Virus record (IMG/VR): IMGVR_UViG_2529292919_000008
Source of the DNA: a virus
Taxonomy: Duplodnaviria; Heunggongvirae; Uroviricota; Caudoviricetes
Direction: 5' to 3' (one strand)
Length of the DNA: 53,981 bases
Below are positions 9,593-46,655 of the stretch, piece after piece. The notes under the pieces were generated by a model, which saw nothing but the letters and a program-made list of their open reading frames with translations, was not told the DNA's origin and did not search any database. The translations under genes were made by a program, and so were the position numbers. Each line of letters begins with the position of its first letter. The first letter of the stretch is position 1.

Positions 9593-10249
9593 TCAGCCGC
9601 CGGACGCACTGCCGTAGTTCACTCCGGTGATCACCGCCACCGCCGCGGTACGGCGACGACGCCAGTTGATCCAGCGCTCCGCACGGATGGCCACGCTGCC
9701 TGTCTGGAACATGGAAACCAGCTCCACCGGGGACGGCGTGGTACTGTCGCCGGTCGGCTCAGACTGCATTTCCAGTGATGCCTCGCGGGACATATCCACT
9801 GCCACGCCTCCGTCATCCGCCAGATAAATATCCGGGGCATTCACCAGCACCAGCTGGTCACCCACGTACTGGGAGACAATCACCGGCAGCCCCTGGAAGG
9901 AGCCACCCAGCAGGGTCATGTCCGGGTATTCCTTCTGACCCAGCGCATTTTTACGCATGGACAGTGCCAGGGCATTGGTGCTGGACATCAGCCAGACCGC
10001 ACCGGTGGGCTGCAGGTTTGCTGCCACAAACTGTCCAAACGCAGCCTCTGCATCCGCATCCGGGTTACCGGTTGATGCCGTGCCCTTCACATCATGGGTG
10101 ATGGACGCCGGGGAGACATCTGCCACTGCGGCTTTTTTCGGGTCCACAAAGTCTGTATCCAGACGCGCCACCACCGCTTCCGCCAGCGCATTACGGACCA
10201 GTGCATCAGCAGCCGGACTGGAAAAACGGATCAATTCTTCCGTCAGTAC
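9593..10249 (-). pseudogene. 3' fragment of the HK97-type major capsid gene, split by the Mu-like insertion
   Basis: Translation ...LTEELIRFSSPAADALVRNALAEAV...FQTGSVAIRAERWINWRRRRTAAVAVITGVNY looks like an HK97-fold capsid C-terminus. The frame continues upstream only into Mu-end sequence and resumes in frame at 46661. Confidence 0.75.
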
Positions 10250-10410
10250 TGTGGGGTAGTGATCAATTCTGGGCGGAGTTAGTGCAGCCTGGTAGAACCG
10301 GCAAGCCTTGTGTGGCGCGGGGTGTGGTGATTTAGCGTGATTCTGGGCGGATTTGTGAGAAATGACCAAAAACGCTTTTTTTTGCGCTTTTTTCTGGGCG
10401 CTTTTGATCT
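10250..10410 (+). promoter_or_regulatory. Left end (attL) with three transposase-binding-like repeats
   Basis: TTCTGGGCG occurs at 10267, 10341 and 10391, and the same motif recurs at the right end. The third copy is preceded by GCGCTTTTT, as in the right terminus. Confidence 0.6.
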
Positions 10411-10561: not shown

Positions 10562-11209
10562 TTATGCTGATTTCTTGTTTACAGGCTTAGTTTCTTGCTC
10601 CGGTGTGACGGGAACGCGATCACCTGGTGTTCCAGCACAGAAAATGGCTTTGGCGCGGCGCAAAATCTCTTTGTCATTTTCCTCATCGCCAGCTAATGCC
10701 ATGCAAACAGCGTCTTTAAGCGATTGCCTGATGTTCAGGCTTTGAATGGCCTTTCTTTGCTCCTCAAGTTCGCTATCGGCTTGCTTAGTTTGCCTGGTGG
10801 GTTGCTGTAGGCGTTCCAAGATTCCTTTAATGCCCATATCGCATATTGCACTTATCAGCTGTTCCTTATCTTCTGTGGACGCTCTTTTCAATAACTCGTT
10901 AACTAGCTCGTTTGTAATATCGGGAGAAGGCTGCGCTGTTTGATTTGATAGAGAACTTTCTTTGGCGATGGGTTCCTCACCGTAAGCGAGCCAATTTAAG
11001 CTCACTTGTTCTTTATCTGATATAAGGCAAGCTATTTTAAAAGAAGGCTCTGTTCCTTTATGAATGTAGTTGTTTAAGGTTGAAGGGGGGATTCCCCAAT
11101 CACTCGCAGCAGTTCTGACACTACGGTTACCTATCAGCTTTACTAAACGCTCTCTGAAACTTTCTTTTTCCCGGTCGACAAAAGAAAAAGCATCATCATT
11201 TCTAGTCAT
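10562..11209 (-). CDS. Putative repressor (Mu c-like position), HTH DNA-binding protein
   Basis: 215 aa, transcribed leftward next to the left end and divergent from ner. HTH-like segment RTAASDWGIPPSTLNNYI...SLNWLAYGE. Confidence 0.5.
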   Translation of the reverse strand: MTRNDDAFSFVDREKESFRERLVKLIGNRSVRTAASDWGIPPSTLNNYIHKGTEPSFKIACLISDKEQVSLNWLAYGEEPIAKESSLSNQTAQPSPDITNELVNELLKRASTEDKEQLISAICDMGIKGILERLQQPTRQTKQADSELEEQRKAIQSLNIRQSLKDAVCMALAGDEENDKEILRRAKAIFCAGTPGDRVPVTPEQETKPVNKKSA

Positions 11210-11391: not shown

Positions 11392-11628
11392 ATGATGGTT
11401 AGAAATGAAGTAATGAACAAAGACTGGCACCGCGAGTACATCGTTGCCGCTGTGCACACCAAAGGTTTTACATTGCGTGAACTTTCTGAACGCGCTGGTC
11501 TAAAAAAAGACTCTTTAAAAAATGCACTGTATCGCTCATGCCCTAAATATGAACGCATCATAGCCGATGCTATTGGTGTGGAACCTGCGGAGATCTGGCC
11601 AAGCCGGTATGCCAGTAAGGCGGCGTAA
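11392..11628 (+). CDS. ner: Ner-like DNA-binding regulator
   Basis: 78 aa. Matches Mu Ner (...IWPSRY... C-terminus). Stop overlaps the A start (TAATG). Confidence 0.8.
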   Translation: MMVRNEVMNKDWHREYIVAAVHTKGFTLRELSERAGLKKDSLKNALYRSCPKYERIIADAIGVEPAEIWPSRYASKAA

Positions 11629-13670
11629 TGTTTTATTCAGCCAATGAGCTGGCCGGTCTTCCTGGTTTGCCCGGTACAGTTCAGGGGGTGCGCTGGACGC
11701 TCAATCGGATCACAGATACGCACCCGGAATGGAAGCGCAAGCGCGAAGGCACCAAAGCATTCGAGTATCACATCGACTGCCTGCCCGCTGAAGCGCAGAA
11801 AGTTTTACGTAAGCGCCTGACCCATCAGGTTCTGGAAGATGCACAACTGCCCGCCGTGGTTGAGCAGAAGGCAGTTAAAAACGTCGCCGTTCGCGATGAA
11901 CTGGAAGTGATGGTCAAATGCCCGGAACTGGCATTACGCGAAGTCCAGGCACTGACCGACAAGCAAAAGGCCATTGCTGATGCGCGGATATTGCTGGCTA
12001 CTGAAGTGCATAAACTGCGTGAATACGCCGGAATGACCAGGAAGGCCGCGTTAAAGCACATCGTTGATGGTGTGCGCATGGGGGCGTTGCCTGACCGCAT
12101 TATCGAAGCAGCGAATACTGCAAATGCACGTCAGGGAAAGCGAACCGGTGTCAGCACCGGCAGCCTGGATAGCTGGTACTCCAGCTGGGTGATGGCGCGC
12201 GGTGATGCCAATCAGTTACTGGCGTTACTGGCTCCCGGTCATCATAAGGGAACACCGTGGGAGCAGGTCTGGTGGTTGAGCGATTTCTTTATGTTCTATC
12301 GCTCATGGAAGCGCCCGACCGTTGAATACGCTTATCGCGAGTTTTCAGCCTGGTGGCATGAGAAACACGCGAATGATGCGGGAATGCTGGCGGCACTGCC
12401 TTCAGTTCACGCAGTAAGACGGGTGTTAAGCAACGTCCCGGTGATTGTTAAGGAGCGTTTCCGCTCCACCGGTTCAGCCTGGCGTTCGCTCAATCCTTTT
12501 GTGCGGCGCGACTGGAGCACATTACCGGTTAATGCGGTATGGGTCGGGGATGGTCACTGTATGAAAATGACTGCGTTTAACCCACTGACCGGCAATATTT
12601 TCCGGCCAGAAGTGACGCTGGTTATGGATGCGGGTCAACGCTTTGTTGTGGGCTGGTCACTATCCCTGTCGGAGAACGTGATAGCCGTTGCTGATGCGTT
12701 ACGTTACGGCATGGCGCAGCACGGGATACCGCTGATTTATTACTCCGATAACGGGGGCGGTGAAAAAAACCGGGTGCTTGATGCCGATATTACCGGGATT
12801 CTGCCCCGGCTGGGTGTGGAACATCACACGGGGATACCAGGTAACCCGCAGGGGCGCGGGGTGATTGAACGGGCAAACAAAGGAATACCCAAAGACGTGG
12901 CTCTGAGTTTCCAGACGTACTGCGCAAGGGATGCAGACAAGGAAACCGTAATGATGCAGCAACGGATTATGCAGTCAGCCATTAAGGCCACCCACAAAGG
13001 GAAAGAACTGACAAAACGGCAGGTTAAGGCGAGGGATGAAATCCCCACCTTTGAGCAACTGCTGGCAGCCATAGAGCTGGAGGTCAGACGCTATAACAAC
13101 CGGCCACACAGCAGCCTACCCCGCAAAGAGGATGGCGAATATTACAGCCCGGCAGCGTATCGCCGGAAACTGATAAAAGAGCAGAATGTTGAAATTGATT
13201 TCCTGTCGCCGGAAGAACTGCATGAAATGTTCAGACCGGAAGTGACGCGCAAAACATTTCGCGGGGAAATTCAGTTATTCAACAATATTTATTACTCATA
13301 TGAGCTGGCCGCAGAGCACGGGAATGAAGTCAGGGTCAGTTACGATATTCATGATGCAAACAGCGTCATTGTCCGGCGGGCTGATGGCTCTTATATCTGC
13401 GATGCCATCTGGAACGGTAACAAGGTTGATGCCTTCGCTAAACCAGTTATCGAACAAAAACTGGAGAAACGCGTCAGGGGCCGCATTGCACGGGCCACGC
13501 AGAAAATCGAAGAGGCTAAACGCGAGCTTACCCCGGCTATTACGCAGAAGCCTGACTTTAATCTGGGATATGGACTGGAACGCCCGGAGAAAAAGGAAAA
13601 AGAAGAACTTTATTTATTCGCATCTGAACGCGAGCGCAATTTAAAGAAAAACGGCACAAACAACCATTAA
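11628..13670 (+). CDS. A: Mu-type DDE transposase A
   Basis: 680 aa directly after ner. Translation carries WVGDGH and GIPGNPQGRGVIER segments that I read as the MuA-type DDE core; no search run. Confidence 0.9.
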   Translation: MFYSANELAGLPGLPGTVQGVRWTLNRITDTHPEWKRKREGTKAFEYHIDCLPAEAQKVLRKRLTHQVLEDAQLPAVVEQKAVKNVAVRDELEVMVKCPELALREVQALTDKQKAIADARILLATEVHKLREYAGMTRKAALKHIVDGVRMGALPDRIIEAANTANARQGKRTGVSTGSLDSWYSSWVMARGDANQLLALLAPGHHKGTPWEQVWWLSDFFMFYRSWKRPTVEYAYREFSAWWHEKHANDAGMLAALPSVHAVRRVLSNVPVIVKERFRSTGSAWRSLNPFVRRDWSTLPVNAVWVGDGHCMKMTAFNPLTGNIFRPEVTLVMDAGQRFVVGWSLSLSENVIAVADALRYGMAQHGIPLIYYSDNGGGEKNRVLDADITGILPRLGVEHHTGIPGNPQGRGVIERANKGIPKDVALSFQTYCARDADKETVMMQQRIMQSAIKATHKGKELTKRQVKARDEIPTFEQLLAAIELEVRRYNNRPHSSLPRKEDGEYYSPAAYRRKLIKEQNVEIDFLSPEELHEMFRPEVTRKTFRGEIQLFNNIYYSYELAAEHGNEVRVSYDIHDANSVIVRRADGSYICDAIWNGNKVDAFAKPVIEQKLEKRVRGRIARATQKIEEAKRELTPAITQKPDFNLGYGLERPEKKEKEELYLFASERERNLKKNGTNNH

Positions 13671-13688: not shown

Positions 13689-14582
13689 ATGAGTTTAATT
13701 ACGCAATTAAATGACGTAATGGCCCGTCGCGGCTATACGCAGACCCACGTCGCCCGTGCTATTGGTCGTAGCAGCGCCGTTATCAGCCAGTATTTGCAGG
13801 GTAAATATCAGGGCGATATGTCTGATATTGAAGAACGCATTTCTGCCTTTGTGACCCGTGAGCGGGAAAAAGAAAACAGCCGCCGTATTAAAGCAAAGTT
13901 TGTGACCACCGGTATGGCTGCCAAAGGACTGGAGGTGCTGGCCTACGCTCACCTGGAATGTGAAATCTGTGTGCTGTATGGCGCAGCAGGTCTTGGCAAA
14001 ACAATGATTCTGCGTGAATACGCCGCCAGAAACCGGGATGCGGTCCTGATTGAAGCCGACCCGGGCTATACAGCCAGAACACTGCTTGAGGAGCTGTGCC
14101 GCCAGCTGGGGGTAAAAGTTCGCGGCAATATCCACGAACTGATTGATGCATGTGTGCGAGAACTGCGTGATTCCGGTCGCCTGCTGATGGTGGACGAGGC
14201 TGAACTGCTCCCCTATCGCGCACTGGAGGTTCTGCGCCGTCTGCATGACAAAGCGGGTATCGGGATTGTCCTGGCGGGTATGCCACGCCTTCTGATTAAC
14301 CTCAAGGGACGTCGCGGTGAGTTCGCCCAGTTATACAGCCGTGTGGCGCTGGCGCTTAACCTGGGCGATACGCTGTCGCAGGAAGATTTTAACCAGATAG
14401 CTACCGGGCTGATGCCGGAAGCAGCAGAACCGGAAATCAGCGAGGCGCTCTACGCACGCTCACTGGGTAATGCCCGCCGCCTGTTCAAACTGGCGCGCGG
14501 TGTGTACCGGATTTGTGATATCAGCGATGCACCGGTCAGTGTGCAGGCCATTGATAAATTCGCAGAAATGTTAATTCACTGA
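13689..14582 (+). CDS. B: Mu B-like AAA+ ATPase (transposition target DNA activator)
   Basis: 297 aa. N-terminal HTH region, Walker A GAAGLGKT and Walker B-like LLMVDEAE. Directly downstream of A. Confidence 0.85.
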   Translation: MSLITQLNDVMARRGYTQTHVARAIGRSSAVISQYLQGKYQGDMSDIEERISAFVTREREKENSRRIKAKFVTTGMAAKGLEVLAYAHLECEICVLYGAAGLGKTMILREYAARNRDAVLIEADPGYTARTLLEELCRQLGVKVRGNIHELIDACVRELRDSGRLLMVDEAELLPYRALEVLRRLHDKAGIGIVLAGMPRLLINLKGRRGEFAQLYSRVALALNLGDTLSQEDFNQIATGLMPEAAEPEISEALYARSLGNARRLFKLARGVYRICDISDAPVSVQAIDKFAEMLIH

Positions 14583-15078: not shown

Positions 15079-15723
15079 ATGACGACTGAAAATAAAGTTA
15101 AGCAATACACGAAAACTCAAGCGCCTGAAGGTTACTGGGTGGATGCCCGTGGCGTAATGACACCTGAAAGCCTTATCAAAGATATTGACCGCGACCGCGA
15201 GCAGCTGGTCGGTGAGCTTGTGGAGATGGTGATTGCTGCCTCCGCCTCACTGCGTGAACTGAAACTGCGAGCGTTTGGTGATATTCAGGCGTTTATTGAC
15301 CTGTCGGCAGAGAAATACGGCGCTGTGAAAGGCGGTAAAAAAGGGAATATCACGCTGTACAGCTTTGACGGGCGTTACAAGATTCAGCGCGCCATGCAGG
15401 ACCGTATCGCGCTTGATGAACGCATTCAGACCGCGAAGGCACTGATTGATGACTGTCTGGCTGACTGGACGGAAGGAGCGCGCCCTGAAATTAAAGCCAT
15501 CATCAGTGAAGCATTCAGCACGGACAAGGAAGGCAACATTAACACCGGGCGCGTTCTGGCTCTGCGTCGTCTCGATATTACGGAGGAACGCTGGGATAAC
15601 GCCATGAAACTGATTGGTGAAGCCGTCCAGGTGGTTGGCAGCAGAAGCTATATCCGCGTGTATGAGCGCGTCGGTGATTCTGATGAATACCGCGCAATCC
15701 CGCTTGATATTGCAGGGGTTTAA
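15079..15723 (+). CDS. Mu-like early protein, DUF3164-like
   Basis: 214 aa. Resembles a family I recall from Mu-like prophage early regions; assignment from memory. Confidence 0.4.
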   Translation: MTTENKVKQYTKTQAPEGYWVDARGVMTPESLIKDIDRDREQLVGELVEMVIAASASLRELKLRAFGDIQAFIDLSAEKYGAVKGGKKGNITLYSFDGRYKIQRAMQDRIALDERIQTAKALIDDCLADWTEGARPEIKAIISEAFSTDKEGNINTGRVLALRRLDITEERWDNAMKLIGEAVQVVGSRSYIRVYERVGDSDEYRAIPLDIAGV

Positions 15724-15724
15724 C

Positions 15725-15958
15725 ATGCATCAGGATATCAAAGAGTACAGAGCCGGAAATAGTTGCGCGGCGTATTCGCTGGGCGCGTCCAGAGCAGAAC
15801 AACGCGGCGATTATGCCGAGGCTGAAAAGCTGTGGCGTAAGGCAGCGCAAAGCCCGTGTAGCACCCTGCGCCGCATCTGGGCAGAACACCGGGCACAGTT
15901 CTGTGCCAATGCTCACCAGAAAGGATGGAAGCCGATTCATGAACGCGAAACGCTTTAA
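15725..15958 (+). CDS. Small Cys/Trp-containing early protein (ANR-like?)
   Basis: 77 aa from MHQDIKEYRAG. Weak family recollection only. Confidence 0.3.
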   Translation: MHQDIKEYRAGNSCAAYSLGASRAEQRGDYAEAEKLWRKAAQSPCSTLRRIWAEHRAQFCANAHQKGWKPIHERETL

Positions 15959-16130
15959 TCAGTTATATCCGCCTGGTACTCGTTTCATGCACATTGCACA
16001 TCAGGCGGTGCGTGGTGGTCGGGTGGTAAAAACTGTTGCACCGGCCAGAGATTTTAAATGTGGTTGTGTGGTTGAAATTAATGTCGAGCCTTATTTCGTA
16101 AAAGTCGAAACACTGAAAGCACCGCATTAA
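15939..16130 (+). CDS. Hypothetical small early protein
   Basis: 63 aa from MNAKRFNQLYPPG. Overlaps the upstream stop. Confidence 0.3.
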   Translation: MNAKRFNQLYPPGTRFMHIAHQAVRGGRVVKTVAPARDFKCGCVVEINVEPYFVKVETLKAPH

Positions 16131-16210
16131 TTTAATTTGTTTTTAATTGTTATTTAAAACAGGCGTAAACCCGCCGGGGCTGGCTTACGCCTGAATCTGA
16201 GGGATTCATT

Positions 16211-16927
16211 ATGGAAAATAAAAGCAAATATATCGCCAAAATTAAAAAACTGTTACGCCTTGCCAGAGGAACATCAAGCCCGGAAGAAGCCGCTAACGCT
16301 ATTGCAAAAGCCCAGGCTTATATGCGCCAGCATGGCATCAGCGAAAACGACGCGGAATTGTTCGACATTCAGGAAGCTGCCAGCGCGGGTGCGCCGAGTG
16401 ATGCCAGTACGCCGCCGCGTTATATGCACATCCTGTGTGACCTGGTCTGTAAAGCCTTCGGTGTCGAGTGTTACATCTCAGGTGAATACCGGGCTTCTGG
16501 TTCACTCAAACGTTACGTTCGTTTTTATGGTCCTGACAGCCGCCCGGAAATTGCGGCATACGCGTTTGATGTGCTTTCCCGTCAGATGATGGCTGAACGT
16601 AAAAAATATCAGGATAAACACTGCAAACGTTGCGGTCCGTCCACGCGGGTAGCCCGTGGCGACCAGTTCTGCGAAGGCTGGGTCTTTGGTGCCCGTGATG
16701 TCATTGCGGTGTATGACGTCTCCCCGGAAGAAAAAAGCCGCCTTGAGCTTTACAGAAAGAACCTGCACAGCACTAAGGGGCTGCGCGACGGGGATATGCG
16801 CACAGCTAAAGCGTGCCGGGGTGCAGAGTTTGCCGCTACAGCCGGTTTTATCGCCGGGAAAAACGCCAGGCTGCATCAGGGGGTTAATGGTCAGAGCAAC
16901 AGACCGCTGGCACTGGGGAGGGTGTAA
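16211..16927 (+). CDS. DUF2786-like protein with Cys-rich C-terminal region
   Basis: N-terminus KYIAKIKKLLRLARGTSSPEEAANAIAKAQAYM fits the DUF2786 pattern. Central CKRCGPS...FCEGW cysteines. Confidence 0.45.
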   Translation: MENKSKYIAKIKKLLRLARGTSSPEEAANAIAKAQAYMRQHGISENDAELFDIQEAASAGAPSDASTPPRYMHILCDLVCKAFGVECYISGEYRASGSLKRYVRFYGPDSRPEIAAYAFDVLSRQMMAERKKYQDKHCKRCGPSTRVARGDQFCEGWVFGARDVIAVYDVSPEEKSRLELYRKNLHSTKGLRDGDMRTAKACRGAEFAATAGFIAGKNARLHQGVNGQSNRPLALGRV

Positions 16928-16929
16928 CG

Positions 16930-17157
16930 ATGGCTTTTAAACTTCTCAGTGTTACCGAAGCAATATACCAGCCTCCCGGAGAACGCCACGAATACAGGAT
17001 GAATGACGGTAGCGCAGCGGTTGAGTTCCCTAAATATCCGGGGGCTTCCCGGTGGCGGTTCTATGACAGTGCGGGACGCCGGATTATTAAAAGAACCGTG
17101 CACAACGCCATGAAAGCCGCTGTAGAACGTCACAAAAGGAGGTTTAACTGCAAATGA
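16930..17157 (+). CDS. Hypothetical small early protein
   Basis: 75-aa ORF; start overlaps the upstream stop (translational coupling). Confidence 0.3.
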   Translation: MAFKLLSVTEAIYQPPGERHEYRMNDGSAAVEFPKYPGASRWRFYDSAGRRIIKRTVHNAMKAAVERHKRRFNCK

Positions 17158-17384
17158 ATATTGAATTTTATGACTATGGGGTTACTGCAAAAATCATTGT
17201 CACCTGCTGGTTCTGGGAGTTCCGTCGCTATTGCCGGGTTGTGGATGCGGCGCTGTTTGCGGCCCCTGAAGTGCACCATCAGAGCGGTGGCGGTCTTTTA
17301 ATGAGAACCGTCATCTACGGTAAGACGGTCCCGATGTTACGGGCGTTTAAAGTGGCAAAACAGGAGGCTGGCAATGGTCATTGA
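17154..17384 (+). CDS. Hypothetical small early protein
   Basis: 76-aa ORF with ATGA overlap to the upstream gene. Confidence 0.3.
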   Translation: MNIEFYDYGVTAKIIVTCWFWEFRRYCRVVDAALFAAPEVHHQSGGGLLMRTVIYGKTVPMLRAFKVAKQEAGNGH

Positions 17385-17664
17385 TAAAACGATAACGATA
17401 GATGTGGCCATGAATACAGGTCTGGCGCTTATCGGTTATGGCTATATCACTTTTATGTCATTCAGGTGGTTGATTTCTTCGGTCTTTAAACAATGTGAAA
17501 AACGTCGCTGCAAAGACAAGCGCGTGAAGGCACTAAATGCGTTTAATGACGCTTTTGATATTGACCGTATGCAACAGGGCGACCCGGCACGCGTAATTAC
17601 CCGGGGAGATGTCGTGATTTTGGTATACCGGAGTGAAAAAAATGAGCAGGAGGCGGCGCAGTGA
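17374..17664 (+). CDS. Hypothetical small membrane protein
   Basis: 96 aa with one hydrophobic segment (GLALIGYGYITFMSFRWLISSVF). Confidence 0.3.
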   Translation: MVIDKTITIDVAMNTGLALIGYGYITFMSFRWLISSVFKQCEKRRCKDKRVKALNAFNDAFDIDRMQQGDPARVITRGDVVILVYRSEKNEQEAAQ

Positions 17665-17821
17665 ACCAGCAAACCAGAATAAGCGATAAGAGTCTGACCA
17701 GACTGATTGCCGATGCGGACAAGGTGCTGGAGCGGAACACCCCGGTTGCCGATGAGGAATGGTGGCAGGATTTCCGGGCCGCAATGCTGGAACTTCAGGA
17801 ACGTCGTCGGGAGGAGTTGAA

Positions 17822-18088
17822 GTGAGTGGATCAAATTGTCGAATTAATGGCAATCGAATAAAGCCGTGTGCTGCATTGGCAAAGTCTCTTGAGCGTGATG
17901 CTGAATGCTCAGTAAGAAAAGGCTTACTGCTATACAAAATCTGGAATGAGAGTTTAACCCGTGGACCTGATTTGGTGATGTTGCGTTCCGGTGAGTTTTC
18001 TAAATCACCTATTCGAGTCTCATTTTGCCCGTTTTGTGGTGAAAGTCTGAAAACATGGAAAAAGGAGGCAGCCAGTGAGCGAGATTAA
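17822..18088 (+). CDS. Hypothetical protein with CPFCGE zinc-ribbon-like motif
   Basis: GTG start overlapping the stop of an unlisted 54-codon ORF (17661-17825). Confidence 0.3.
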   Translation: MSGSNCRINGNRIKPCAALAKSLERDAECSVRKGLLLYKIWNESLTRGPDLVMLRSGEFSKSPIRVSFCPFCGESLKTWKKEAASERD

Positions 18089-18932
18089 CTATCAGGCACT
18101 GCGTGAGGCGGCAGAGGCCGCGAAGGGGGATACGACGTGGCAGAACCTACAGGCTTTTCGTGCTGTGGCTACGCCGGAGGTTGTGCAGGCGTTGTTGGAT
18201 GAAAACGAAAGACTGTGTCGCGATCTGATAGCTCGTAATGGTGAGGTTGAAGGGCTTCGGAAGTGGGCAGAAGAACTGGAGGCACGGGAAATAAAACCAG
18301 CCAAAGGCGAAGTTCTTGTCGTTGTATCTGGTTTTACTGGTTGCGGAAAAAGCGCCATTGCCGGGGAAATAGAAATCGCGATGAAGGCTATTGGTGTACC
18401 GGTTAAGTGGACTAATGGCGATGCAGAAAAGCGCATGACTGGCGCTGACTGGCTGACAGCAATTGAGATGTACAAACCAACTGTGCGCATCGTGGAAACT
18501 AATGTGCCACTGCCGCAGGCATTCGCATCAAAGGAGAGTGATATGACCACTATAACCAGAGAAAACGCGGAGATTAAATCATTCATCACTGGTTTCCTGA
18601 GCGACCCGGCGCACGATAACCAATCTTCAAACAGCCTGCTTGCCAATGTGTTTCGTATCGCGCTGGCATCGCTGGAAGCAGAGCCGGTGGCATGGATGCG
18701 TGATGACGCAGATGGTCGTGAGTATAACGCTCGCAACGAATTTTCTTATGGAGGGAGAGGCATTCCACTCTACGCTGCCCCGCCAGCAACGGTGGTGCCG
18801 GAATTTGAAACATGGTTTAACAGCCAGGAGTCAGGGAGGAGTATATGCAGCACACAGATTCGTCGTTCCCTTCAGGAAATTTCATGGAACGCCTGCTGCG
18901 CCGCCATGCTTCAGGGTAAGGGAGGTGAGTAA
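18075..18932 (+). CDS. Ead/Ea22-like protein with Walker A P-loop
   Basis: N-terminus YQALREAAEAAKGDTTW...ATPEVVQALLDENERL resembles the Ea22-like family. It is followed by a beta-strand plus P-loop, EVLVVVSGFTGCGKSAIAGEI (GxxxxGKS). Confidence 0.45.
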   Translation: MSEINYQALREAAEAAKGDTTWQNLQAFRAVATPEVVQALLDENERLCRDLIARNGEVEGLRKWAEELEAREIKPAKGEVLVVVSGFTGCGKSAIAGEIEIAMKAIGVPVKWTNGDAEKRMTGADWLTAIEMYKPTVRIVETNVPLPQAFASKESDMTTITRENAEIKSFITGFLSDPAHDNQSSNSLLANVFRIALASLEAEPVAWMRDDADGREYNARNEFSYGGRGIPLYAAPPATVVPEFETWFNSQESGRSICSTQIRRSLQEISWNACCAAMLQGKGGE

Positions 18933-19290
18933 TGCGTGTGGCATGTATCGGCTTGTTACCGTATCCGACTCGATTTTGGGCTTCTGCGCTAATTGCAAAG
19001 CCGCATGTCCTGATGGCTGACAGCATCATCCCGGCACCGAAACGCCGTACAGGCATTGCGGCGGCGAGACGAGCAGCAAAGAAACGCAGGAGAACAAAAC
19101 GATGAAAAATCGTAAGGCAAAAATTCTGTTAGCTCGCAGAAACGGTGTTGGGGTCTGGCGATGGTTGAGGATTAGTAACAGACGAGTGAGGTTGACGGGG
19201 TGTTGCGGGGTGATGTTGCACAGCTGTTGCAAAAAGCCCAGCGCGGCGCAAAACCGCAGGAAAAATCACGGTATGTAAAGGAGGTGCCAG

Positions 19291-19695
19291 GTGAAGAAAA
19301 TGGTTTTTGTGGCGGCATTGCTGACCGTTACCCAACAGGCTTCAGCAGTTATTGTGGCATCTGCCGCTGCGACTACGGCTGCCGCAGCTGCTGCGAACTC
19401 TGCGAATATCGCAAGCCAACAGGAGCAGGACGCTGCTAACGCATCAGCCAGTGCTCTCCCGATTTTTGTTAAGGGCAGTAAGCTAAATCTGGGGTTCATA
19501 ACGTGCGGTAAGCGTTCTTATGAAGCTGTAGGCTCACTGGGATGTACGGTATATGGCGACAGTGAGAGCAGAGAAATTCCATGGAAAACGTGGCCCGGAT
19601 ACGTTCTTGGTTCGAAGCTCCCGGCCAGTTATGAGGTAAACGCCGTGTCGTTTGATCACTATAACGGCGTGGCAACTGTCTATTTCACATACTGA
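19291..19695 (+). CDS. Secreted protein with signal peptide and Ala/Thr-rich linker
   Basis: MKKMVFVAALLTVTQQASA signal-like N-terminus, then low-complexity AAATTAAAAAANSANIAS and a Cys-containing C-terminal domain. Confidence 0.45.
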   Translation: MKKMVFVAALLTVTQQASAVIVASAAATTAAAAAANSANIASQQEQDAANASASALPIFVKGSKLNLGFITCGKRSYEAVGSLGCTVYGDSESREIPWKTWPGYVLGSKLPASYEVNAVSFDHYNGVATVYFTY

Positions 19696-19736
19696 GTTCC
19701 GGCATGAAATTTTCTGAATCACGGAGTAACAACCTG

Positions 19737-19922
19737 ATGAAAACTATCACCGTAACGGTTGAAATCGACGTTCCTGATAACGCAACGGACAATGATATTG
19801 CTGATTTTGTCGATGTCGAGTACGGGGAGTGCGGAAAAATGGCACTTGATAACCCATGCCGGACAGATGGAACGGAAATACTCGATGCCAGATGGGAGCA
19901 CGGCCCCGATTACGCGGGTTGA
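19737..19922 (+). CDS. Hypothetical small acidic protein
   Basis: 61 aa from MKTITVTVEIDVPDN. Confidence 0.3.
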   Translation: MKTITVTVEIDVPDNATDNDIADFVDVEYGECGKMALDNPCRTDGTEILDARWEHGPDYAG

Positions 19923-19941
19923 TTGAACAGTAATCAAACGC

Positions 19942-19986
19942 AGACCAAAACATGTGTTTTGGTCTGCCAAAAGTAGTGTTTTGGTC
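19942..19986 (+). promoter_or_regulatory. Operator-like palindrome AGACCAAAAC-N4-GTTTTGGTCT plus extra GTTTTGGTC half-site
   Basis: Perfect 10-bp inverted repeat at 19942-19965 and a third half-site at 19978-19986, ending 3 nt before the ATG at 19990. Confidence 0.45.
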
Positions 19987-19989
19987 ATT

Positions 19990-20268
19990 ATGAAGATTGA
20001 ACAAATCGGAATGGCAGCTTTCAGGCAACAGGCTGAAAGCGGTGGCGTGGATGAGTTCGTCGTGCAGCGGTTCGGTGGTGTGTATCACCTCTTCGCTGTG
20101 AATCGCCGCGCTGGGGTGTCCTATTTTCTACAGGAACGCCGTGGCGATTACAAGACGTGGCTGTCTCTTGATCGTGCCGCCGCGTTCTTGTCAGGGATTG
20201 GCGTTTCACGTTTTACCGTACGTTTTGAGGATAACAAACATGCTGAAAAAGATGATCGGGGCCATTAA
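19990..20268 (+). CDS. Hypothetical protein downstream of operator-like palindrome
   Basis: 92 aa from MKIEQIGMAAFRQQ. 3' end overlaps the gemA start. Confidence 0.35.
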   Translation: MKIEQIGMAAFRQQAESGGVDEFVVQRFGGVYHLFAVNRRAGVSYFLQERRGDYKTWLSLDRAAAFLSGIGVSRFTVRFEDNKHAEKDDRGH

Positions 20269-20638
20269 AGCCGGTCAGGCGTATCTGGGGTGGGATGATG
20301 CCCTTTATCGCCAGACGCTGGCCCGCCTGACCGGTAAAACCAGCACCACACGCTGCAATCTCAATGAACTGCGCATCATCCGGGAATACATGCACGAACA
20401 GGGATTCCCGCGCAAGGCACCCGCCGGTAAAGGTCGCCGCCCCCGTGTTGCAATGAGCAGAAAATCGGTATTATCCAAAATTGAAGCGTTGCTGGCTGAT
20501 GCCGGTCGTTCCTGGGGGTATGCGGAAGGACTGGCATCTCACATGTATAAGCAACATGTGATCGAATGGCTGACGGATGAACAGCTTTTCGGGGTGATGG
20601 TGGCGCTGGTTAAAGATTCAAGAAGGAGGAGTAAATGA
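20240..20638 (+). CDS. gemA: GemA-like regulatory protein (Mu gp16 family, DUF1018)
   Basis: ...AGQAYLGWDDALYRQTLARLTGKTSTTRCNLNELRIIREYMHEQGF... resembles Mu GemA. Located just before Mor, as in Mu. Confidence 0.65.
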   Translation: MLKKMIGAIKAGQAYLGWDDALYRQTLARLTGKTSTTRCNLNELRIIREYMHEQGFPRKAPAGKGRRPRVAMSRKSVLSKIEALLADAGRSWGYAEGLASHMYKQHVIEWLTDEQLFGVMVALVKDSRRRSK

Positions 20639-21138
20639 TTAAAAAACGGTATTTTCTTTTAGTAGCGTTCATTTTGTCTTTTCCTGCCGTTGCTGAATGG
20701 CACACATGGGTACAAAAAGATGCTTTTGATGATCAACAAACAGCCATGATGGTGGGTATTGGAACAATGGATTTTGGGATTGCTTTAGACTGTTCGAATG
20801 ACTCACTATTCGCTGGTATTACAAAAGAAACAGATAAAGTTAACATTGCGTTATTCGGTTCATCAAAAGATTTAATATTTAGGATAGACGAATTTCCAGC
20901 AGTAAAGACCACAGGGGTACTCGCTGCACGAAATGAAAAAATGTATATTTATAAAATAGAGGACGAACAAAAAATCAAAGAGTTGTTATCTTATCTTCGA
21001 AAAGCCCAAAAACGTGTTTTAGCTGGTGTAAAAGAACCGAGTGAAGAACGAGGCGCATCGTTTAATGTAACACCGACAGGTTCAACAACCGCTGTTAATA
21101 AATTTATCAAAGCCTGTAACATCAAGATTCCAGAGTAA
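20635..21138 (+). CDS. AT-rich moron: secreted protein with signal peptide
   Basis: ATGA overlap with the gemA stop. Signal-like MIKKRYFLLVAFILSFPAVA then EW. Codon composition visibly AT-rich against GC-rich flanks. Followed by an intrinsic terminator. Confidence 0.5.
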   Translation: MIKKRYFLLVAFILSFPAVAEWHTWVQKDAFDDQQTAMMVGIGTMDFGIALDCSNDSLFAGITKETDKVNIALFGSSKDLIFRIDEFPAVKTTGVLAARNEKMYIYKIEDEQKIKELLSYLRKAQKRVLAGVKEPSEERGASFNVTPTGSTTAVNKFIKACNIKIPE

Positions 21139-21145
21139 CTTAATA

Positions 21146-21174
21146 GCCGCCCCTGCCATGTAGGGGCTTTTTTG
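21146..21174 (+). terminator. Rho-independent terminator after the moron
   Basis: GC stem (GCCGCCCCT / AGGGGC) followed by TTTTTTG. Confidence 0.6.
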
Positions 21175-21236
21175 TGGTCTGTACAGGCGATCATGTATGG
21201 CTATAATAACAGTAAGTTACTACCGGAGACGCCATC

Positions 21237-21704
21237 ATGCAGACCTTCAGTGAAACAGATCTTCGCGATGCGCAGGCACTGCTGCCCGATTCCGTGCAGC
21301 AACTGATTAGCGTGATTGGCTTCCCCGCCCTGACCCGGTTAATCCGTTCTTTTGGTGGCGTGACGTTAAGCGGTAAAACCGGCGCACACGCCGAACGCAC
21401 CGGCGGTGTCCATGCCCTGTTACATGATGTGCTGACCGAAGACGAAATCAACAAACTGATCCGCTTTCTTGGCGGTGCGCCGTTTTACATTCCCCGTTGC
21501 GATCATGCGTTACGTGCCCTGCGTAACACCCGTTTTATGGCAGATTTACAGCAGCATGTAAAAGACGGATGCTCACACCGGCAGGCGCTGGCACTACTCT
21601 GTCCCCGTTACGGGATTTCAGACCGGTACGCATGGCAGCTGATACACCGACGACAAAAGCAGACTTCGCTGAAAAGCCCCACCCAGGTGGGGCTTTTTGA
21701 TTAA
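21237..21704 (+). CDS. mor: Mor/C-family transcriptional activator
   Basis: 155 aa with C-terminal HTH-like RQALALLCPRYGISDRYAWQLI. Position after gemA, as for Mu mor. Confidence 0.55.
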   Translation: MQTFSETDLRDAQALLPDSVQQLISVIGFPALTRLIRSFGGVTLSGKTGAHAERTGGVHALLHDVLTEDEINKLIRFLGGAPFYIPRCDHALRALRNTRFMADLQQHVKDGCSHRQALALLCPRYGISDRYAWQLIHRRQKQTSLKSPTQVGLFD

Positions 21705-46569: not shown

Positions 46570-46655
46570 TTAGCGTCCAATTCTGGGCTTTTTGGTTGCG
46601 CTCTCTCCGCCCAGAATTGTGCGCCAATTAGCCCAGAAAAAAACGCGAAGTTACA
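46570..46655 (+). promoter_or_regulatory. Right end (attR) with transposase-binding-like repeats
   Basis: TTCTGGGC at 46581-46588, inverted CGCCCAGAATTG at 46608-46619 and GCCCAGAAAAAAACGCG at 46631-46647. Element ends ...TTACA at 46655. Confidence 0.6.

Follow-up and report, generated by a model that had tools for sequence, protein, structure and literature searches.

The window analyzed here, 53,981 nucleotides (nt) in all, is the entire contig AIEY01000039.1 of the E. coli DEC1D assembly GCA_000249115.2. In the early region of a Mu-like transposable prophage it harbors an open reading frame (ORF) of 285 amino acids (aa) at positions 18075 to 18932, the product of which (EHU24204.1) is annotated as "hypothetical." This ORF is not one native gene. 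It consists of two adjacent early genes, one Ea22-like and one Eaa-like, that a one-base deletion has fused. The C-terminal part of the native Ea22-like protein is a segment of about 65 aa, here called the GKS module, which carries a conserved Walker-A-like motif and, judging from its distribution among sequenced proteins, is an autonomous and mobile phage mini-domain. A first-pass annotation, made from the sequence alone, had read the ORF as a single Ea22-like gene whose product might be a small P-loop NTPase or kinase, or perhaps a toxin of the zeta type. The ORF exists as it was called, but its last 129 codons are a separate downstream gene, and the length of 285 aa, which is suggestive of an enzyme, results from the frameshift fusion. 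The composite ORF has the following features.

18075-18932, plus strand: composite ORF, 285 aa with a GTG start; an Ea22-like gene and the downstream Eaa-like gene, fused by frameshift
18062-18068, plus strand: Shine-Dalgarno (SD) sequence AAGGAGG for the GTG start, 7 bases upstream of 18075 and within the 3' end of the ORF at 17822-18088
18075-18287, plus strand: N-terminal Ead/Ea22 segment (aa 1-71; Pfam PF13935), a presumed coiled-coil stretch included
18306-18509, plus strand: GKS module (aa 78-145), a mobile mini-domain of about 65 aa, usually C-terminal in Ea22-like proteins
18330-18353, plus strand: Walker-A-like motif GFTGCGKS (aa 86-93)
18483-18497, plus strand: V-R-I-V-E141, a hydrophobic segment with an invariant final Glu, candidate Walker-B-like element
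18510-18511, plus strand: position of the 1-nt deletion; the two bases have lost an intervening G, the insertion of which restores ...NVPRAAGIRIKGE* (155 aa)
18510-18542, plus strand: frameshifted linker LPQAFASKESD (aa 146-156), in place of the native tail RAAGIRIKGE
18531-18541, plus strand: SD AAGGAG of the downstream gene (18531-18536) and the ancestral Ea22 stop codon TGA (18539-18541), now out of frame
18543-18932, plus strand: Eaa-like gene, the C-terminal part of the fusion, 129 aa with an ATG start; its own SD and ATG are intact

A one-base deletion fused two coupled early genes

Searches with PHROG, Pfam, and BLAST divided the 285-aa protein into three parts (aa 1 to 71, about 73 to 148, and about 157 to 285), and each of the best 120 homologs covered at most 72% of it. 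The Pfam Ead_Ea22 family (PF13935) matched aa 2 to 71 well above its cut-off (E = 9.6e-11; 42.8 bits versus a 27-bit cut-off; model positions 1 to 93 of 139) and the homologs carry the NCBI name ead/Ea22-like, so that the Ead/Ea22-like N terminus noted in the first-pass annotation was upheld. The AlphaFold model showed a low predicted local distance difference test (pLDDT) score at residues 65 to 77. In the 90% cluster of the window protein, two proteins named "ead/Ea22-like" (P0400 and P0401; 155 to 156 aa) were near-identical to residues 1 to 145, and a free-standing protein of 121 aa (P0399) matched the final ~90 residues of the C-terminal half without a difference.

The DNA was aligned with that of the closest relative, a Mu-like prophage of E. 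coli STEC346. Upstream of the junction, ~330 nt were near-identical, with 3 differences that all fell within the final 14 nt, and a further ~770 nt downstream of the junction were also near-identical. At the junction itself, the window reads GTGCCAC-TGCC and STEC346 reads GTGCTACGTGCC; a single G is absent from the window, 10 codons upstream of the native stop. In STEC346 the Ea22-like gene ends with ...VNVLRAAGIRIKGE-TGA, and its stop lies within GGAGAGTGATATG; the AAGGAG in this stretch is the SD of the next gene, and the ATG of that gene comes after it. Moreover, in STEC346 no stop codon interrupts the frame of that downstream gene over the 29 codons before its ATG. The deletion moves the ribosome into this open frame, and the ORF consequently runs through to the downstream stop (...NVP-LPQAFASKESD-MTTITRE...). 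Conversely, insertion of a G after 18510 brings back the ending ...IRIKGE*, which is that of the close relatives; the restored tail is the commonest native tail in the database, and the ancestral protein ends ...PRAAGIRIKGE. The native K/R-G-E C terminus is absent from the window protein because of the 1-nt deletion.

The fusion is confined to one strain, E. coli DEC1D. The junction was absent from 5,426 complete E. coli genomes, among which the best full-length match to the 91-nt junction was 95.7% and had the extra base. We considered the possibility that the fused ORF is a sequencing or assembly artifact and that DEC1D really has two separate genes, because the assembly is an early-2010s draft, one base decides the matter, and no other complete genome shares the fusion. 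However, the NCBI assembly and each of two separately assembled read sets yielded the identical 285-aa product, and the missing base lies outside any homopolymer run (CAC[G]TGCC); moreover, nearby substitutions relative to STEC346 (GTT to ACT) show that the sequence around the junction has truly diverged. On the strength of the separately assembled read sets and the lack of a homopolymer, we take the deletion to be real with considerable confidence and an assembly error to be highly improbable.

Three other database proteins (P0031, P0101, and P0121) carry the GKS module fused to different downstream proteins in the same ...AFASKES[DE]M... frame and with different junction sequences. These are independent fusions: more than once, an indel in the final codons of an Ea22-like gene has given rise to a read-through fusion. 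Together with the precedent of Phi24B and 933W, in which the corresponding information is carried by one gene or by two, these independent events make indel-driven read-through into the coupled neighbor look like a recurrent route to mosaic Ea22 proteins. That programmed +1 ribosomal frameshifting normally joins both genes, with the DEC1D allele hard-wiring a natural fusion product, has a negligible probability in our judgment: the internal SD AAGGAG 2 nt before the TGA, the 29 open codons upstream of the ATG, and the recurrence of independent fusions are compatible with it, but ordinary translational coupling explains the arrangement fully, no conserved slippery or hungry codon was identified, and the fusion indels differ in position, as random mutations would, with tails after the module that vary widely.

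The downstream partner is a gene in its own right. The Eaa-like half has many free-standing homologs (115 to 141 aa; 50 to 79% identity) that are similar over their full length (98 to 100% coverage), and the protein is free-standing in most genomes. It matched phrog_660 (E = 2e-19), no Pfam or NCBIfam model matched it, and its relatives also form the N-terminal part of proteins named DUF551-containing or Eaa. With its SD and start codon preserved, the Eaa-like protein may still be made separately in DEC1D. For many of its relatives (P0106, P0288, P0327, and others), NCBI and UniRef give the name "dTDP-6-deoxy-L-hexose 3-O-methyltransferase"; neither Pfam nor NCBIfam revealed a methyltransferase domain in the window's copy, and the name looks like a propagated mis-annotation.

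Extent, spread, and conservation of the GKS module

The hydrophobic stretch and Walker A string that had been pointed out in the first-pass annotation are present (VLVVVSGFTGCGKS, aa 80 to 93), and G86 through S93 conform to GxxxxGK[ST]. The bare string alone is weak evidence; a six-frame translation of the window contained it 8 times (once as the Walker A motif of the MuB-like ATPase), and shuffled versions of the 285-aa protein showed it at P = 0.007, or at P = 0.0002 when a hydrophobic strand had to precede it. It is conservation that argues against chance. Among 150 representatives of 50%-identity clusters, G86, G89, G91, K92, S93, and A94 did not vary, nor did they in distant homologs (35 to 40% identity) or in any other homolog examined. 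Across 24 diverse copies, distant ones included, the sole invariant columns were these six residues plus G107, E118, and E141, which are the residues expected for phosphate and Mg binding. The module follows the layout extended segment, GxxGxGKSA loop, helix, extended segment, helix, and extended segment ending in Glu, with E118-K119, D125-W126, and Y133-x-P135 as extra conserved elements.

An exhaustive search of 1.84 billion cluster representatives retrieved 442 clusters (at 50% identity) with E ≤ 1e-3, of which 349 had E ≤ 1e-10. In more than 100 E. coli Ea22-like proteins, the module was 95 to 99% identical and ended 8 to 10 residues before the C terminus. The tails that follow the module differ widely among homologs; because they vary so freely, we place its end at E-x-N-[VI]-P. 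Temperate as well as jumbo phages carry it; among the carriers are phiV10, the P1-like phages D6 and JL22, and Yersinia and Burkholderia phages. Large proteins of Ralstonia and Burkholderia jumbo phages contain distant copies (35 to 40% identity), and a Stenotrophomonas phage protein has one at its N terminus. A profile built from the four most distant copies retrieved stand-alone proteins of 72 to 78 aa that consist of the module alone (P0378, P0383 to P0386, P0389, and P0393 to P0395; loci L010 5001-5225 and L011 5001-5234). Such forms sit in accessory regions of phages: in a Burkholderia gladioli prophage, next to a DNA methylase, a Lar-like restriction-alleviation gene, and the integrase, and among small ORFs of a 219-kb phage-like metagenomic contig. 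One stand-alone module protein bears the JGI label "adenylylsulfate kinase-like enzyme." Since the module recurs in many proteins and also occurs by itself, it is a phage mini-domain, autonomous and mobile. Pfam and NCBIfam have no model for it, and the PHROG families into which it falls are without known function.

P-loop resemblance and possible role of the module

A single-sequence search of PDB sequences with the whole ORF returned nothing significant. A profile of full-length homologs is diluted by their N-terminal regions, and a module-only profile was therefore used against the PDB sequences. It matched 259 of them at E ≤ 10, and all 60 of the matches listed were P-loop proteins, among them the nucleotide-binding domain of ABCC9 (2.4e-5 for the whole sequence but 0.14 per domain), a designed phosphate-loop protein (6c2u; 1.3e-3), ArsA, a de novo ATPase, gluconate kinase, and APS kinase. 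With Pfam, APS_kinase, AAA_16, or AAA_18 was matched by 19 to 23 of 24 module members, and the stand-alone forms behaved alike. The PDB matches extend over no more than strand 1, loop, and helix 1, in some cases with strand 2 as well, and all were below curated cut-offs. The surroundings of the motif thus resemble, in sequence, the strand 1, P-loop, and helix 1 region of P-loop NTPases, nucleotide kinases above all.

Several results weigh against extending this resemblance to a P-loop domain. Every match to a P-loop family in Pfam or NCBIfam was below the curated cut-off and was confined to the first ~40 positions of profiles of 128 to 250 positions. The module, at ~65 residues, is about half the size of the smallest canonical P-loop domains or less, and because it is complete alone it cannot be a canonical P-loop NTPase domain. 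Moreover, AlphaFold modeled both the module as it occurs in the window (pLDDT 79) and the stand-alone protein P0385 (pLDDT 91.9; predicted template modeling score 0.77) with three helices and no strand by DSSP, so that the three-layer alpha/beta/alpha fold, with its central and mostly parallel sheet of at least five strands, was not seen, and Foldseek searches of the PDB with both models gave only noise and no P-loop NTPase neighbor. In both models the first helix starts exactly at the Lys of GKS. The hydrophobic segment before the GxxxxGK[ST] motif is extended, without being called a strand, and the candidate Walker B element V-R-I-V-E141 ends in an invariant Glu, yet no sheet is predicted. 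Of the features that define the P-loop NTPase superfamily, the Walker A motif is present, V-R-I-V-E141 is a candidate for Walker B, and neither the fold nor an above-threshold match to a curated family was found. Two additions that might have supplied the missing parts were rejected: the native tail RAAGIRIKGE as a structural fourth strand, since tails differ so widely among homologs, and the fused C-terminal half as the completion of a P-loop domain, since in most carriers the protein stops directly behind the module, which also exists by itself.

The models nevertheless leave the hydrophobic segments VLVVVS, VPVKW, and TVRIVE extended and unpaired, as would be expected if a sheet formed between subunits. 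AlphaFold has been described as unreliable for Ea22 proteins in monomer or context-dependent runs (PMC10834534), and Ea22 proteins are tetramers with dimeric C-terminal domains (PMC10834534). The explanation that we favor, and that we consider probable on balance though far from secure, combines the fusion of coupled genes with a minimal P-loop-type ligand-binding head on an Ea22 oligomer. The native upstream product is a 155-aa Ead/Ea22-like protein composed of the Ea22 N terminus, the presumed coiled coil, and the C-terminal GKS module. The module may be a minimal P-loop-type binder of a phosphate-bearing ligand, such as a nucleotide, polyphosphate, or nucleic acid, with oligomerization completing both the sheet and the binding site, either through the coiled coil or by self-association of the stand-alone forms. 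It could then form the head of an early accessory protein and sense or sequester the ligand, the protein as a whole tuning phage development or the interaction with the host, a role that may be likened to that of the lambda and Stx-phage Ea22 proteins, which favor lysogeny (PMC7093339). In DEC1D, loss of one G after 18510 shifts the Ea22-like frame and carries translation through LPQAFASKESD into the Eaa-like protein, leaving a module without its native tail and with the Eaa-like protein as a C-terminal extension.

The Gly-rich motif might instead be a structural relic, the module being a dimerization or protein-protein interaction domain that binds a host or phage protein and no phosphate ligand. 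The C-terminal domains of Ea22 proteins are interchangeable dimeric modules with unique folds and unknown function (PMC10834534); the three helices, the lack of a sheet, and the lack of P-loop neighbors in the AlphaFold models would all suit such a domain, and close relatives conserve the whole module strongly, well beyond the motif. However, distant and mostly diverged homologs keep exactly GxxGxGKS and two Glu residues, the residues expected to contact phosphate and Mg; an invariant Lys-Ser pair is rarely needed by a purely structural turn; and the PDB profile matches listed (60 of 259) were all P-loop proteins. We regard a structural relic as unlikely, yet as a serious rival.

A genuine, catalytically active small phage kinase or NTPase, or a zeta-like toxin, is a less probable prospect still. 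What speaks for an enzyme is the perfect, invariant GxxxxGKS after a hydrophobic segment, the invariant acidic residue that ends the Walker-B-like VRIVE, and the consistency of the sub-threshold matches to nucleotide kinases (best, APS_kinase at E = 3.2e-5 among the members). Those matches end, however, at about profile position 40, as noted above, in kinase profiles of 128 to 180 positions, and the module, which is complete in proteins of 72 to 78 aa, has no lid or substrate domain. With respect to a toxin, Zeta_toxin was never matched at E ≤ 1 in any scan, the PADLOC defense models gave no match, and no antitoxin-like partner was noted; moreover, a 91-nt stretch with the 3' end of the module matches ~14% of complete E. 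coli genomes, with no sign of an immunity gene. The module is therefore unlikely to be a classical kinase, NTPase, or zeta-type toxin. The first-pass annotation had itself named a structure prediction without a nucleotide-binding fold around the GKS motif as evidence against the enzyme, and the two models, which have neither a beta-sheet nor P-loop neighbors, come close to refuting it.

The ORF as such is ordinary, in that it represents a common prophage accessory gene in which the fusion is incidental. The GKS module, on the other hand, is a large, unrecognized family of phage domains, possibly of a minimal P-loop type. Should nucleotides or other phosphate ligands prove to be bound by it, phage biology would gain a new class of early accessory ligand binder and the study of protein evolution a natural minimal P-loop.

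Prophage setting and comparison with known systems

The ORF lies within a chain of small coupled genes, and the prophage is flanked by genes of another phage, as follows.

10562-11209, minus strand: CI-type repressor
11628-13670: Mu transposase
13689-14582: MuB-like AAA ATPase, with a genuine Walker A motif at 13980
16930-18088, plus strand: upstream chain of five small overlapping or adjacent ORFs of 75, 76, 96 (DUF4752), 54, and 88 aa
18932-19278, plus strand: continuation of the coupled chain beyond the 285-aa ORF, two ORFs of 57 and 58 aa with TAATG and ATGA overlaps
564-3806, minus strand: tape measure
4548-5399, minus strand: Ig-domain tail protein
6796-9477, minus strand: 893-aa ORF with portal
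46628-47941, minus strand: ORF with S78 prohead protease
48005-49666, minus strand: TerL

From 16930 to 19278, all junctions between ORFs either overlap by 1 to 14 nt or are 2 nt apart, and an SD sequence is present at each start. The coupled chain that had been described for 16930 to 18088 was thus confirmed and is longer than claimed. The neighbors of the 285-aa ORF within it are small coupled ORFs without known function. A scan of positions 15500 to 21500 for promoters and terminators found fewer promoter-like sites than in shuffled sequences and no informative terminator between the coupled ORFs. After the MuB-like ATPase, the gene order is DUF3164, DUF2786/DUF7168, DUF4752, the 285-aa ORF, GemA, Mor, holins, endolysin, and late genes.

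Minus-strand structural genes of another phage were observed on both flanks of the Mu-like prophage (564-10369 and 46628-49666), which suggests that the Mu-like element inserted within or next to a resident prophage. The 88-aa ORF at 17822-18088 (plus strand) has two Cys pairs, C-x10-C near the N terminus and C-P-F-C near the C terminus, that are suggestive of a zinc ribbon; it had no Pfam match. A 134-aa ORF at 19291-19695 (plus strand) encodes a signal-peptide-like N terminus and an Ala/Thr-rich stretch (MKKMVFVAALLTVTQQASAVIVASAAATTAAAAAANS...). It had no Pfam match and is not in STEC346, whose alignment to the window breaks at ~19280; possibly it entered the early region as a moron-like insertion. 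At 19940-19967, an almost perfect palindrome (GCAGACCAAAACACATGTTTTGGTCTGC), whose stem measures 12 bp, overlaps the start of the ORF at 19954-20268, and STEC346 carries a similar palindrome (GACCAAAACATATGTTTTGGTC). The element, which lies immediately before the GemA and Mor genes, could serve as an operator or be terminator-like.

The native Ea22-like protein shares with lambda Ea22 and the Stx-phage variants V1 to V3 (PF13935/IPR025153) the N-terminal signature and an organization in which a common N terminus and coiled coil are followed by an exchangeable C-terminal domain (PMC7093339, PMC10834534). It likewise derives from an early accessory gene in a chain of small ORFs, and its native allele ends in K/R-G-E (PMC7093339). 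Unlike lambda Ea22, however, it has a different C-terminal module; the solved lambda domain has the topology b1-b2-a1-b3-b4-a2, and because the PDB sequence searches matched no solved chain outside the P-loop motif, no likeness to the lambda domain was apparent. The gene also differs in residing in a Mu-like transposable prophage, where it sits between the MuA/MuB, DUF3164, DUF2786, and DUF4752 genes and GemA/Mor and not in the lambdoid exo-xis location, and in having lost its native end and gained a second gene. The Ea22 papers searched do not mention Walker, P-loop, or ATP, and no newer functional work on Ea22-like proteins was found.

The "+GE" (K/R-G-E) C terminus has been reported for all Ea22 proteins, with unknown significance (PMC7093339). 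In the window (18530-18545; AAAGGAGAGTGATATG) and in relatives (for example, L001 8750-8770), this tripeptide is encoded by AAA-GGA-GAG-TGA. Since that sequence contains the AAGGAG SD of the translationally coupled next gene, the "+GE" ending may reflect a constraint at the nucleotide level rather than at the protein level. The same arrangement bears on the fusion. Ea22 is encoded by one gene in Phi24B and by two (ea22 and L0065) in 933W (PMC8614690, section 4.5), so that there, as here, Ea22 and a module just downstream are found either fused or separate. In our case the partner is an Eaa-like gene, and a single-base deletion in one strain is responsible, unlike the insertion event that was credited in those phages. 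Because the genes are coupled and the downstream frame is open before its start, a 1-nt indel near the 3' end gives an in-frame fusion, and the DEC1D junction shows at base resolution how mosaic Ea22 proteins can acquire new C-terminal domains.

P-loop nucleotide kinases (APS kinase, gluconate kinase, CoaE, and AAA_18/AAA_33-type proteins) have in common with the GKS module a hydrophobic strand, GxxGxGKS, an amphipathic helix, and a G-hPh strand, often with an acidic residue next. The LDGD motif of APS kinase may be compared with W-x-N-G-D of the module. Unlike these kinases, the module corresponds to the first third of the kinase domain only and lacks a lid and a substrate site. Zeta domains comprise ~200 aa or more and have a cognate epsilon antitoxin; the Walker A motif is the sole feature that the Zeta and PezT toxins (UNAG kinases) have in common with the module.

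The designed phosphate-loop prototypes (PDB 6c2u/6c2v) resemble the module in size range (40 to 110 aa), and 6c2u was among the better profile matches. Beta-(P-loop)-alpha polypeptides of this kind, studied by Tawfik and colleagues, bind nucleoside triphosphates (NTPs), polyphosphate, and single-stranded DNA only as oligomers (bioRxiv 10.1101/2020.07.30.228619). Those are laboratory constructs that were designed from consensus P-loop NTPases; the GKS module, in contrast, occurs naturally as a family in phages, and by analogy it might bind its ligands in a similar manner. A bolder conjecture, which we put forward as doubtful, is that the module represents a natural minimal P-loop family (65 to 75 aa) whose oligomers bind phosphorylated ligands and which phages deploy free or tethered to Ea22, and that its members are the smallest self-contained Walker-A proteins known. 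If so, the module would sense or sequester NTPs, polyphosphate, (p)ppGpp, or immune signaling nucleotides, the last in the manner of a "sponge"-like anti-defense protein, or would bind single-stranded DNA, and the beta-(P-loop)-alpha prototypes made in the laboratory, which have been proposed as ancestors of the P-loop NTPases, would have a living counterpart in it.

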